This document shows, one piece after another, positions 53,966 through 57,073 of a stretch of DNA of 64,000 nt. The notes beneath the pieces were generated by a model, which searched no databases, was not told the origin of the DNA, and saw only the letters and a program-made list of their open reading frames with translations. The stretch lies in NCBI RefSeq assembly GCF_056746865.1, contig NZ_CM163382.1. One strand, written 5' to 3'. Positions within the stretch are counted from its first letter, which is position 1. Each line of letters starts with the position of its first letter. The translations under genes and the position numbers were made by a program.

Positions 53966-54826
53966 TTAATGCGATGATTGAGGGGTAAAGCGATAAAAAC
54001 GATTTGGTTCGCTAACGATATAAATATTACCAGAGGCATCCATCGCAACCCCTTCGGCCTGTTTGATGTTATGCGACAAACCTCGACTGCCTTTGGTTAG
54101 TGACATTTCACCGATAACCTCGCCAACCAGGGTTACTTCCTGGAGTGCGCGAGATTCATGAGACAGCACCAGAAGCGTATTTTTTTGCTGGTTAAATTCT
54201 GCGCCGGACACATCATCTAAAGTAAATTGCCGTTGTAGTGCCTCGTCTTTGCTGATGTGTAATTCATTGCTACTTAACAGCCCGTTAACTTTGTAGACCT
54301 CAATCGGATTTTTCTCTTTAAAAAACCAGAAAGTGTGATCCTGGCGAGAATAAGCCAACCCTTCAAAACCGCAATTGGTTGGGGAGTCTTGCAGCGGGAT
54401 TTTTATTTTTTTGAGGATTTTTACTTCCGAGTTTGGGGTCAGTGAAATCACATAAATGGCGTAATCGCGCTCATCGCTAATGACAAACTGATTATCGCCA
54501 ATGTATTCGATCGTCTCGAGATCCTTAACAAAATCCAGAGGAATTGTGCGGATAAAATCACCATTGGTGGTCATTTCAACAATGGCGGCAGGTTTGTTGA
54601 TAGTGCTAAAAAGAGTATTGCTTTGTGCCGACCAGGTCAGCGAAGAGATATTATTCGTTATGCCTGCAATTTCTTTGCCGTCAATGGTGGCGTGGTAATT
54701 CTGAAATGATGCTGCATGATTGCTTTTACGGGCGCAAGATTGCACGAAGAAAGTACACACTGCCACAATGGCAAAAAGAATCACAATAACGGAGATGCGT
54801 TTACTTAACGAAATACTTTTTGTCAC
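53966..54826 (-). CDS. yjiK: SdiA-regulated-domain (beta-propeller-like) protein YjiK; start uncertain (GTG at 54826 chosen; the frame is open to 54937)
   Basis: Good coding region with an N-terminal hydrophobic signal/anchor ([22 protein letters not shown]); I chose the GTG at 54826 so that it does not overlap the upstream small ORF. Confidence 0.7.
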
Positions 54827-54890
54827 GGTAATCCCTTTAAGGCAAATCAATAAGATATCGAGAAGTATACGTAGCGACCTTAATGAATCC

Positions 54891-55148
54891 TTAACGCGGA
54901 GAAACCCCGTAATGTGCAATGCAGCGCCAGACACCATCCTGCTGGCAATAAATTGACTCAGTCAGCCCAGGGATCACCCATTGTATTTCCTCGCCGGGGG
55001 GACAGGTCAGCCAAATGCATAACCCGCAGCCGCCGCGTAAATCACGGGGAATATCGCTGACGCGAAAAGTCATGCCCGCTGCCTGCAACGCTTTGCGGGT
55101 TTGTATGACGCCGACCGTGGAGTGAAATAAAAATAAAAACTCTTTCAT
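54891..55148 (-). CDS. small uncharacterized protein (85 aa, Cys-containing GGCGLC motif), translationally coupled to yjiL
   Basis: ATG at 55148 overlaps the yjiL stop codon (ATGA overlap at 55145-55148); coding potential is moderate; possibly a DUF3343-like partner of the yjiLM system (family call from memory). Confidence 0.5.
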
Positions 55149-55918
55149 CGGCGTGTCCTCACTCGTTGACCAATTACCGCCGCGCCAATTGCGCCAGCAA
55201 ATTGCGCATCAGGATGGGTATTTACCGGCATTCGCAGGTGAGATTCCAGCATCCGGGCAAACTTCTGGCAATGACTAACGCCACCAGTAAACAGAATCGG
55301 CGCTTCACAGGAGAGACGAGCAATGAAATTGGCACTCCTCCGCGCCATCGCGTTAATCACTCCGGCGAGAATCGCTTCTGGCGCGACGCCCGCTGAGCGC
55401 AGGCTGATCGCTTCTGATTCAGCAAACACTGTGCACATACTCGTGATGGCGTGCGGCGTGACATTTTCGGTAATGCTGTCGAGTTGCTCGACGCTGGTGC
55501 CAAGCGTGCGCGAGATCACCTCCAGGAAACGCCCGGTGCCCGCCGCGCATTTGTCATTCATCAGGAAATCGCACAGGTTACCGTCATCATCAAGCTGAAT
55601 CACTTTGCTGTCCTGGCCACCGATGTCGATTACCGCGCGCGTTGCTGGCGCAAGAAACCGTGCGCCCAGCCCGTGACAGGAGATTTCCGTTACCTGTTTA
55701 TCGGCAAAATCCACCAGTTGCCGCCCGTAGCCGGTGAGCGTCAGAAACGGCGTTGTCTCTAACCCTTCGCGCAGAGTTTCCCAGGCTTCAGTAATTGCTG
55801 TTGCCGGGCGAAAGGGGGTTGGAACGAGGAAACGGCGCGTAATCACGCCGTCTGCCAGTAAGATCCCTTTGGTGGCGGTTGAGCCGGAATCAATGCCAAT
55901 CGAATATGCCACTGCCAC
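55145..55918 (-). CDS. yjiL: BadF/BadG/BcrA/BcrD-type ATPase (2-hydroxyacyl-CoA dehydratase activator-like)
   Basis: 257 aa; ASKHA/acetate-sugar-kinase fold motifs (GIDSGSTATKG, GGQDSK); adjacent to yjiM. Confidence 0.85.
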   Translation of the reverse strand: MAVAYSIGIDSGSTATKGILLADGVITRRFLVPTPFRPATAITEAWETLREGLETTPFLTLTGYGRQLVDFADKQVTEISCHGLGARFLAPATRAVIDIGGQDSKVIQLDDDGNLCDFLMNDKCAAGTGRFLEVISRTLGTSVEQLDSITENVTPHAITSMCTVFAESEAISLRSAGVAPEAILAGVINAMARRSANFIARLSCEAPILFTGGVSHCQKFARMLESHLRMPVNTHPDAQFAGAIGAAVIGQRVRTRR

Positions 55919-55921
55919 TCC

Positions 55922-57073
55922 TTACAGCATCTCAATAAAGGCCGCGACACGGGTACTGAGCTGCCCGACATCCGAGGTGGAGTAGTCTGTTTCAATAGCG
56001 ATATAAGGAATGTTGTGCTGCTGGCGCACATGACGTTTAATCGCCAGCGATTCCACCGCGTAGGTATGGCACGCCTGCAAAATCACATCAACTACGCCAT
56101 CGACCTGATATTCCTCCACCATCTGGCTGAGCATTTTCAGGCGCTGATCGTTCGGCGAAACACAGGAGCAGCCAATCGCCAGATATTTATCCGCCAGCGC
56201 GTCGTAGACATCGCCCGTTTCTGCCACGCATTGCTCGGTCGCTTTCGCCCCGGTGCAGTTTTCATAACCGACAACCCAGCCGCCATTCTCTTCAATCGCG
56301 CGCACCACTTTTTCTGCTGCGCCGCCAATCGGGCAGCCGGTGATTAAAATGCGCGGACGCGGGTCCAGTCGCTGGCCTTCTTCCCACTGCTGACGAACGC
56401 GGGCGGTCATTGCATCCAGTTCATTGATCAACGCCTCTTTATCGAACCGGAAGGTTGCGCCGTAAACCACTTTCAGAATGTCGCTGCCGCTAAGCGCCGG
56501 AGGATTTAACTGCCCAAGATGATAAAAATTAGCCAGTGCGCGACGTTCGCGGTTTTTCAGCGCAATGGCATCGCGCAGAACATCTTCGCTAATCTCGTGC
56601 CCAAAACGTTCTTCTACCGTTTTTTGCAAGCGCAGCATCTCGGCTTTCCATAACGCACGCGAGGCATCGTCCTTAACGCTGTTGGGCAATTGCATCACAT
56701 GAACAGGCTTAAACTCCGCCATGTATTCATACATTTTCTTTTTGCCGTCGCAGGTGGTTTCACCGACCACCAGATCCGAAAAGTAGAAGTAGGGGCATTT
56801 ATCGGTTTTGCCGAAGCCGTAGCTGCTTTTAATCAGCGGGCAGAGGTTGCGCGGCAGATCTTTCTCCGCTTCTTCAATGGTTTCATCAGAGGTGGAACAG
56901 AGCGAAACCACAACCGCACCGGCTGCCATCGGGATCTCTTGCGGCATAAAGGTGCAGTAAGTGCCAACCAGCGGAATGCCGCGCTCCTTGAGATCCATGA
57001 CGGTGAGAAAGCCTGTCTGGCGAGCTTCAGAGAACTGATCGAAAATGGCGGGTAGATCGGTGACAAGTGACAT
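55922..57073 (-). CDS. yjiM: 2-hydroxyacyl-CoA dehydratase D-component-like protein
   Basis: 383 aa from ATG at 57073 (MSLVTDLPAIFDQF..); HgdB/BcrB-like family. Confidence 0.85.
   Translation of the reverse strand: MSLVTDLPAIFDQFSEARQTGFLTVMDLKERGIPLVGTYCTFMPQEIPMAAGAVVVSLCSTSDETIEEAEKDLPRNLCPLIKSSYGFGKTDKCPYFYFSDLVVGETTCDGKKKMYEYMAEFKPVHVMQLPNSVKDDASRALWKAEMLRLQKTVEERFGHEISEDVLRDAIALKNRERRALANFYHLGQLNPPALSGSDILKVVYGATFRFDKEALINELDAMTARVRQQWEEGQRLDPRPRILITGCPIGGAAEKVVRAIEENGGWVVGYENCTGAKATEQCVAETGDVYDALADKYLAIGCSCVSPNDQRLKMLSQMVEEYQVDGVVDVILQACHTYAVESLAIKRHVRQQHNIPYIAIETDYSTSDVGQLSTRVAAFIEML

Follow-up and report, generated by a model that had tools for sequence, protein, structure and literature searches.

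The cofactor of double-cubane cluster proteins (DCCPs) is one of the few iron-sulfur cofactors known that resemble those of nitrogenase, and for eight years these proteins have remained without a physiological substrate. We analysed a stretch of 64,000 nucleotides (NCBI RefSeq assembly GCF_056746865.1, contig NZ_CM163382.1; this whole stretch is called the window below) containing three adjacent minus-strand genes, yjiM, yjiL and ytiA, whose products, judged by their sequences, almost certainly form a cassette of a DCCP, a DCCP reductase (DCCP-R) and a DUF3343 protein. The closest described relatives are the DCCP and DCCP-R of Carboxydothermus hydrogenoformans (CHY_0487/CHY_0488; PDB 6ENO and 7YYL). 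According to the 2022 structural paper, both proteins are homodimers, the reductase holds a bridging [4Fe-4S] cluster by C115 and C152, ATP hydrolysis passes electrons to both [8Fe-9S] clusters, and without ATP neither dithionite nor Ti(III) citrate is able to reduce the double cubane. Jeoung and colleagues (PMC7317905) named YjiM/YjiL explicitly and gave YjiM as an example of the class II DCCPs with the shared motif; these proteins do not have the N-terminal helices that close or narrow the substrate channel.

Three other described systems are relevant. First, the 2-hydroxyacyl-CoA dehydratases (HgdAB/HgdC, HadBC/HadI and FldBC/FldI) share with YjiM/YjiL the HGD-D fold and an ATP-dependent [4Fe-4S] 'archerase' activator, but they are heterodimers (alpha/beta) in which each subunit has one [4Fe-4S] cluster, and their substrates are CoA thioesters. 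Second, Lin et al. (2015) proposed that DUF3343 (PF11823) is a selenium/sulfur trafficking chaperone, because its genes cluster with those of YedF, selenocysteine (Sec) lyase and SelD and because the family has one conserved cysteine. Their STRING table for Slackia lists, uncommented, an 'activase' and an 'HGD subunit' as DUF3343/YedF partners, and duf3343 is one of the genes whose overlap with selD Kayrouz et al. observed most frequently; we found no experimental characterisation of any family member in the literature. Third, maturation clusters of selenium-dependent molybdenum hydroxylases, comprising SelD, YqeB, YqeC, YedF and a cysteine desulfurase-like protein, were described by Haft and Self (2008), and the published descriptions of such clusters that we read contain no mention of the reductase pair. 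Haft noted that 955 of 970 proteins matching the DCCP model NF040772 come from SelD-positive genomes and speculated on selenium substrates or a selenium-bridged cofactor; DUF3343 was not mentioned.

Identity of YjiM and YjiL

The gene yjiM occupies positions 55922-57073 on the minus strand and encodes, from an ATG start, a protein of 383 amino acids that is predicted to be the catalytic, homodimeric [8Fe-9S] reductase component. A preliminary description of this locus, made from the sequence alone, had called YjiM HgdB-like, and this was borne out by a full-length match to the Pfam family HGD-D (E 5.5e-121). The more specific NCBIfam equivalog NF040772 ('double_cubane') matched residues 14-383 of 383 with 530.1 bits, against a cutoff of 350. 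The best solved relative was the C. hydrogenoformans DCCP (E 7.8e-75), with about 39-45% identity over 360 residues. Nine cysteines align between the two proteins, and Cys40, 59, 78, 93, 108, 273, 302 and 335 of YjiM were invariant across 80 orthologues. The seven-cysteine double-cubane motif is represented in YjiM by Cys40, 59, 78, 108, 273, 302 and 335, all of which match DCCP cysteines, with spacings a few residues off the printed consensus. The main difference from the solved protein is that of class II: YjiM is shorter by about 36 residues at its N terminus, and the channel-narrowing helices are missing.

The adjacent gene yjiL (55145-55912, minus strand, with an alternative GTG start at 55918) encodes the putative DCCP-R, an ATPase of the ASKHA type that would form a dimer with a bridging [4Fe-4S] cluster. 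Its earlier assignment as an activator-type ATPase was confirmed by Pfam BcrAD_BadFG (E 1e-76) and by TIGR00241 (364 bits, cutoff 125). Structural matches comprised PDB 4EHT, 1HUX and 7YYL_E, with HadI and HgdC as the best PDB matches. Cys124 and Cys162 of YjiL (in the numbering of the 257-aa form) align with the DCCP-R ligands C115 and C152, and both were invariant in 70 orthologues. By analogy with the C. hydrogenoformans pair, which likewise consists of a single structural gene beside an ASKHA ATPase with both ligand cysteines, ATP-driven electron transfer from YjiL to YjiM would be expected.

The preliminary description had regarded these genes as an orphan 2-hydroxyacyl-CoA dehydratase short of one subunit. 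The observation behind this was correct, as only one HGD-D gene is encoded in the window, with no second one among its open reading frames (ORFs), and there was likewise one HGD-D gene per locus across 80 related loci with flanks of about 10 kb. The conclusion drawn from it did not hold. The dehydratase models HadC and HadB gave YjiM only 93.8 bits (cutoff 700) and 19.4 bits (cutoff 750), respectively, far below the result for NF040772, and a single HgdB-like gene is what would be expected from the DCCP architecture of a homodimer plus an ATPase reductase. The same scores, the cysteine motif and the homodimeric architecture largely refute the further suggestion of a non-canonical radical dehydratase, including one that recruits its second subunit from elsewhere. 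The locus had also been presented as a functionally undescribed system, a claim that would fall if the proteins were homologous to two-component systems already characterised and with a defined substrate. Here the outcome is divided: the DCCP/DCCP-R class has been characterised biochemically and structurally, while no physiological substrate is defined for it and the 2022 structural paper states that its physiological function is unknown.

YjiM protein has been detected by proteomics. In expression data, yjiM rises together with the anaerobic genes frd, nrf and nrdDG when oxygen becomes limiting, which fits an anaerobic enzyme.

The three-gene cassette and its DUF3343 protein

The third gene, ytiA (54891-55148, minus strand), encodes a putative carrier of 85 amino acids. 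The order yjiM, yjiL, 85-aa ORF and yjiK given in the preliminary description agreed with the ORF list and the sequence, as did the overlap of the yjiL TGA with the ATG of the small ORF in the ATGA at 55145-55148; in addition, a GAGGA Shine-Dalgarno sequence for ytiA lies within the 3' end of yjiL. The gap of 3 nt reported between yjiM and yjiL applies to the first GTG (55918) of yjiL. In RefSeq, yjiL begins with the second GTG (55912), which leaves 9 nt and a protein of 255 aa, and this start is the better one because its spacing to the AAGGAG Shine-Dalgarno sequence is better. The suggestion that the small ORF might be an unrecognised component was half right, as it proved to be a conserved partner of yjiM and yjiL but was already annotated, as ytiA (b4715) in K-12 and as a 'DUF3343 domain-containing protein' in RefSeq. 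The profile search that had been proposed for it gave a match to PF11823 of 48.9 bits, against a cutoff of 25, and placed it in the DUF3343 (Se_S_carrier) family, the type that the preliminary description had guessed.

To examine the conservation of the three genes, we retrieved 80 loci encoding YjiM relatives (58-96% identity); YjiL, YjiK, YjiN, YjiJ and an iterated DUF3343 profile served as queries against the ORFs of these loci. Gammaproteobacteria contributed 35 loci, from Escherichia, Citrobacter, Klebsiella, Kluyvera, Kosakonia, Raoultella, Cedecea, Hafnia, Morganella, Aeromonas and others. The trio yjiM-yjiL-ytiA was present in all 34 complete loci, the lone exception being truncated by a contig end. 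Together with the PF11823 match and the dN/dS value given below, this conservation shows that the small ORF is no chance reading frame. The start of ytiA overlapped the end of yjiL in every one of these 34 loci, by 4 nt in 25, by 1 nt in 7, and by 8 nt and 11 nt in one locus each. The same trio was found on two metagenomic contigs, which were reached through distant YtiA relatives. The flanking genes were wholly different between loci, being polB-rapA-rluA and djlA-lptD-surA in Hafnia and an autotransporter gene or a tRNA synthetase gene on the two metagenomic contigs, which argues that the trio is a self-contained cassette. This strict co-inheritance of ytiA distinguishes the E. coli-type system from three class I DCCP loci. 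Gene neighbourhood also sets the gammaproteobacterial DUF3343 gene apart from its Firmicute relatives: these stand behind yedF, near selD and a cysteine desulfurase-like gene, in agreement with what has been described for the family, whereas the gammaproteobacterial gene is coupled to a DCCP reductase and not to yedF, selD or Sec lyase.

YtiA retains the single conserved cysteine of its family. Among 32 aligned homologues of diverse origin, Cys41 was the sole invariant residue, within the motif P-x-x-L/I-x-x-x-C-G, and the other four cysteines of E. coli YtiA were unconserved. An AlphaFold2 model (pLDDT 93) predicted a small ferredoxin-like beta-alpha-beta domain in which Cys41 ends the loop between strands 2 and 3. 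The subgroup of YtiA-like sequences is a narrow one: of 1.8 billion representatives searched, only 44 reached E <= 0.001. The dN/dS values relative to E. coli were approximately 0.18 for ytiA, 0.11 for yjiL and 0.06 for yjiM; these figures are rough because synonymous sites were saturated. On these sequence comparisons, ytiA is under purifying selection.

Four apparent YjiL-YtiA fusion proteins (P0129, P0130, P0150 and P0134) were rejected, as they come from frameshifted low-quality assemblies that join the C-terminal part of YjiL to a YtiA-like sequence. Most contigs encoding distant DUF3343 proteins were too short to give gene context. In Acetoanaerobium pronyense (L039:13196-14488, minus strand), DUF3343 is fused to the N terminus of HydE, the H-cluster maturase of [FeFe] hydrogenase, the HydE part scoring 303 bits against a cutoff of 255. 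The fusion gene lies beside hydG and hydF, and this group divergently adjoins a yjiM-yjiL pair.

Selenium genes in Firmicutes and the possible role of the cassette

The 46 non-gammaproteobacterial loci, with flanks of about 10 kb around yjiM, came from Clostridia, Enterococcus, Lactobacillaceae and others. A yjiL gene was present in 36 of them, mostly directly downstream of yjiM, and a DUF3343 gene was usually not next to the pair. In 7 of the 46 loci, belonging to five lineages (Clostridium intestinale; a metagenome-assembled genome of Bacillota; Enterococcus moraviensis and Enterococcus sp.; two Acetobacterium species; and Eubacterium barkeri), YjiM/YjiL orthologues with 60-68% identity to E. 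coli YjiM were embedded in clusters of selenium genes, which are strand-contiguous apart from the opposite-strand yedF and DUF3343 genes of Acetobacterium. SelD, YedF, YqeB, YqeC, MocA and selenium-dependent xanthine dehydrogenase in these clusters exceeded curated NCBIfam cutoffs; for DUF3343 no NCBIfam model exists, and the cysteine desulfurase-like (csd-like) protein scored below its cutoff. In C. intestinale, Enterococcus, E. barkeri and the Bacillota genome, the pair lies within the known type of maturation cluster for selenium-dependent molybdenum hydroxylases.

The order of genes differs among these lineages. In C. intestinale it is xanthine dehydrogenase (xdh) subunits, yjiM, yjiL, selD, yedF, DUF3343, yqeC, mocA and yqeB; in E. 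moraviensis it is yjiM, yjiL, Se-xdh, mocA, csd-like, selD, yedF, DUF3343, yqeC and yqeB; and in E. barkeri it is mocA, yqeB, csd-like, yedF, DUF3343, yjiM and yjiL. In Acetobacterium, yjiM, yjiL and csd-like are accompanied by yedF and DUF3343 on the opposite strand. This variation argues that the proximity of these genes has been selected repeatedly. E. barkeri is the classical source of selenium-dependent nicotinate dehydrogenase. Under a rough model in which a single-copy gene is expected within 10 kb with a frequency of about 0.6%, 7 of 46 loci would arise by chance with P of about 1e-8; with each of the five lineages counted once, P is about 1e-5. YedF was common to all seven selenium-linked loci and DUF3343 was present in six, whereas xanthine dehydrogenase genes were found in only four, which points to selenium trafficking rather than purine catabolism. 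The strict three-gene conservation in gammaproteobacteria and the placement in selenium operons of Firmicutes appear not to have been described before.

Taken as one whole, the reading that yjiM-yjiL-ytiA is a class II double-cubane reductase operon with its own selenium/sulfur carrier is plausible, if not quite probable. By homology, the YjiL homodimer, bridged by [4Fe-4S], would hydrolyse ATP and thereby drive electrons of low potential into both [8Fe-9S] double cubanes of homodimeric YjiM. Gene context suggests that Cys41 of YtiA may carry selenium (or sulfur) as a perselenide or persulfide to the open channel of the class II protein, and that the bound atom might be reduced at YjiM to selenide (or sulfide), which could, for example, feed SelD. 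This carrier-coupled reduction is put forward as a tentative mechanism. The Se(0)/HSe- couple lies at about -0.7 V at pH 7, beyond the reach of NAD(P)H or ferredoxin, so an ATP-driven reductase would suit the reduction of Se(0). A more specific proposal, possible but rather unlikely, is that YjiM/YjiL with YtiA forms the ATP-driven system that anaerobes have so far lacked for mobilising selenium. It would convert carrier-bound or elemental selenium, at a potential out of reach of ordinary cellular reductants, to selenide, which would supply SelD and the labile selenium cofactor of molybdenum hydroxylases, or else it would build a selenium-bridged double cubane.

Several observations weigh against a role in selenium or sulfur transfer. 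First, no selenium gene was found near the cassette at any gammaproteobacterial locus, the 64-kb window included; an association of DUF3343 with SelD, YedF or Sec lyase genes was seen for the DUF3343 genes beside YjiM/YjiL orthologues at six Firmicute loci. The E. coli genes yqeB/yqeC, selD and yedE/yedF presumably lie at other chromosomal sites. Second, 39 of the 46 Firmicute loci had neither a selenium gene nor a DUF3343 gene within 10 kb; a stop-to-stop search of these 39 loci with a local HMM found no additional DUF3343 ORFs, although divergent members may escape such a search. Third, all three class I DCCP loci (Carboxydothermus, Desulfosporosinus and Thermincola) contained the two-gene pair only, without DUF3343, and the carrier is thus not a general requirement of DCCPs. 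Fourth, DUF3343 also occurs in organisms without SelD (Lin et al.), and this occurrence, together with the HydE fusion in A. pronyense, indicates that the family is not selenium-specific; the position of that fusion beside hydG and hydF ties DUF3343 to the sulfur chemistry of metalloclusters as well. Fifth, the fold search with YtiA returned only generic relatives (PII, CutA, UreE and DUF2179), and the sequence search gave no solved homologue. Cells already convert selenite to selenide with thiols and reductases that use NADPH, and the need for a route driven by ATP is thus not obvious. Finally, no experiment tying YjiM, YjiL or YtiA to selenium or sulfur is on record.

If the proposed role of the cassette is true, it would represent a three-component variant of ATP-driven low-potential reductases acting on a protein-bound inorganic substrate, and a physiological function of DCCPs, as well as a biochemical role of DUF3343, would be known for the first time. 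How bacteria generate reduced selenium and deliver it to SelD and to the selenium-molybdenum cofactor is unsettled, and the gene context found here joins that problem to the DCCPs. With a compact three-gene cassette and a mutable single-cysteine carrier, E. coli is the easiest organism in which to test the proposal. Should the selenium link fail, the record would still be corrected: the genes do not encode a dehydratase that lacks a part, and neither yjiK nor mdtM is more than a bystander.

Another explanation is that YjiM reduces an organic or small inorganic substrate, such as a CoA ester, a heteroaromatic compound of purine or nicotinate fermentation, or analogues of acetylene or hydrazine, with YtiA as an accessory or regulatory protein. 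Jeoung and Dobbek (PMC7317905) proposed a CoA ester or larger substrate for class II because the channel-closing helices are missing, and relatives in the family perform Birch-type ring reductions (PMC11971306). The four selenium-linked loci with xanthine dehydrogenase genes of purine catabolism are also compatible with such a substrate, as are the many Firmicute loci in which the pair adjoins ABC transporters, a PatB C-S lyase or AraC-type regulators instead of selenium genes. However, no gene for a CoA-transferase, a CoA-ligase or another acyl-CoA enzyme is conserved beside the gammaproteobacterial cassette, whose flanks are unrelated housekeeping genes, and in Acetobacterium and E. barkeri the csd-like, yedF and DUF3343 genes are adjacent with no xanthine dehydrogenase gene in the 10-kb flanks. 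An organic substrate would, moreover, leave a strictly co-inherited single-cysteine protein unexplained, and we consider it unlikely.

Alternatively, YtiA might be a maturation factor, its Cys41 delivering the ninth bridging sulfide (or selenide) to YjiM or the protein chaperoning the assembly of [8Fe-9S], while the substrate of the enzyme is something else. The stoichiometric gene arrangement with translational coupling would fit a dedicated assembly factor, and Haft noted that the co-occurrence of DCCP and SelD could formally be explained by a selenium-bridged 2x[4Fe-4S] cofactor. On the other side, an adjacent DUF3343 gene is missing from the three class I loci and from most class II loci of Firmicutes, and in the selenium clusters of Firmicutes DUF3343 partners yedF and not yjiM. 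The DCCP of C. hydrogenoformans has reportedly been obtained with its cluster by heterologous expression without co-expressed DUF3343, which also counts against a maturation role; the E. coli host, though, has its own ytiA. A maturation role is doubtful, and what keeps it alive is the DUF3343-HydE fusion beside hydG and hydF in Acetoanaerobium.

A non-canonical ketyl-radical 2-hydroxyacyl-CoA dehydratase, with its alpha subunit encoded elsewhere or replaced by the small ORF, is highly improbable: the family matches of YjiM and YjiL and the K-12 annotations 'putative dehydratase subunit' and 'activator of (R)-hydroxyglutaryl-CoA dehydratase' favour it, but besides the low HadC and HadB scores and the lone HGD-D gene, YjiM has the seven-cysteine motif in place of the three-cysteine [4Fe-4S] motif of dehydratases, the solved DCCP homodimer needs no alpha subunit, no CoA-transferase gene lies nearby, and YtiA, with 85 residues and a predicted ferredoxin-like fold, is unlike an alpha subunit of about 400 aa.

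Other genes were observed near the yjiM-yjiL pair. In Acetobacterium fimetarium (L057:8227-9603), yjiM is preceded, at a distance of about 400 nt and in the same orientation, by a gene for an [FeFe] hydrogenase of group A, with csd-like, yedF and DUF3343 on the other side. An ABC-transporter ATPase was encoded within about 10 kb of the pair at 18 Firmicute loci (for example L062:7974-8750; further loci are L034, L038, L040, L044-L049, L051, L053-L055, L063, L064, L067, L074 and L078). Its closest NCBIfam model was SaoA, from Haft's selenocysteine-assisted organometallic locus, with 248 bits and thus under the cutoff of 360, and transporter types are possibly mixed among these loci. A C-S lyase of the PatB family (498 bits, cutoff 340), which is another enzyme of sulfur/selenium amino acids, divergently adjoins yjiM at four clostridial loci (L044:8585-9760, minus strand; L045; L046; L055). 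In Thermincola potens (L091:7213-7761), the class I DCCP/DCCP-R pair, which has no DUF3343, is preceded by a divergent gene that weakly matches the family of 2-thiouracil desulfurases.

The yjiM leader and the neighbouring genes

The window is part of an E. coli chromosome. The stretch from 53900 to 57200 was found in 5390 of 5426 E. coli genomes and was 100% identical to several complete genomes. In RefSeq, the genes run mdtM, yjiN, yjiM, yjiL, ytiA, yjiK and yjiJ, on the minus strand throughout, and the order in K-12 MG1655 is identical.

Upstream of yjiM (57074-57135, minus strand), an alignment of 18 enterobacterial regions showed a leader far more conserved across Enterobacteriaceae than typical intergenic DNA. 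It contains a -10-like TAATAAT/TATAAT box and, about 23 nt further upstream, an invariant GATCAA, at the position expected for the right half-site in a class II arrangement of the FNR/CRP type; the left half is unconserved. A search for the full FNR box (TTGAT-N4-ATCAA, with up to 2 mismatches) upstream of yjiM in the 35 gammaproteobacterial loci gave no consistent site, only the conserved GATCAA half-site. In addition, an invariant hairpin or palindrome (CCCGTGGTACGGGG; CCCGTG(G/T)TACGGGG) abuts the yjiM Shine-Dalgarno sequence. One stem pair was changed on both sides in Hafnia and on one metagenomic contig, and only one pair of the hairpin covaried; an Rfam scan of the leader gave no match, and the fold energy of the hairpin was unremarkable (z = -0.34). 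Matches in a promoter and terminator consensus scan of 53700-57400 were no more numerous than in shuffled sequence.

In the window, the cassette is neighboured by yjiN (DUF445), mdtM (58510-59742), yjiK and yjiJ. Homologues of yjiN were present in 23 and of mdtM in 13 of the 35 gammaproteobacterial loci, at variable distances, and in these loci mdtM was found near the cassette nowhere outside Enterobacteriaceae. Owing to this lineage-restricted synteny and variable spacing, yjiK, yjiN, yjiJ and mdtM were rejected as members of the system. Passages in the antimicrobial-peptide literature (PMC5960728 and PMC8801401, reviews citing Krizsan et al. 2015) speak of a 'YjiL-MdtM transport system' for proline-rich peptides, but a part for YjiL in such uptake is scarcely credible, as its sequence indicates a cytosolic iron-sulfur ATPase with YjiM as conserved partner, mdtM is near the cassette in a minority of loci, and, since mdtM lies upstream of yjiL, no polar effect of a yjiL mutation on mdtM would be expected.

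The gene yjiK (53966-54826, minus strand), which the preliminary description had grouped with the system, lies outside it. Only 5 of the 35 gammaproteobacterial loci have a homologue, whose distance varies and which is not always adjacent, and in the window yjiK follows ytiA after a gap of 64 nt. This gap is based on the RefSeq start, the GTG at 54826, which gives 286 aa; the longest ORF, from the ATG at 54937, would overlap ytiA by 47 nt. YjiK is a predicted beta-propeller of the SdiA-regulated/phytase-like type (Pfam PF06977, E 1e-94), and its N terminus resembles a membrane anchor or a lipoprotein signal.

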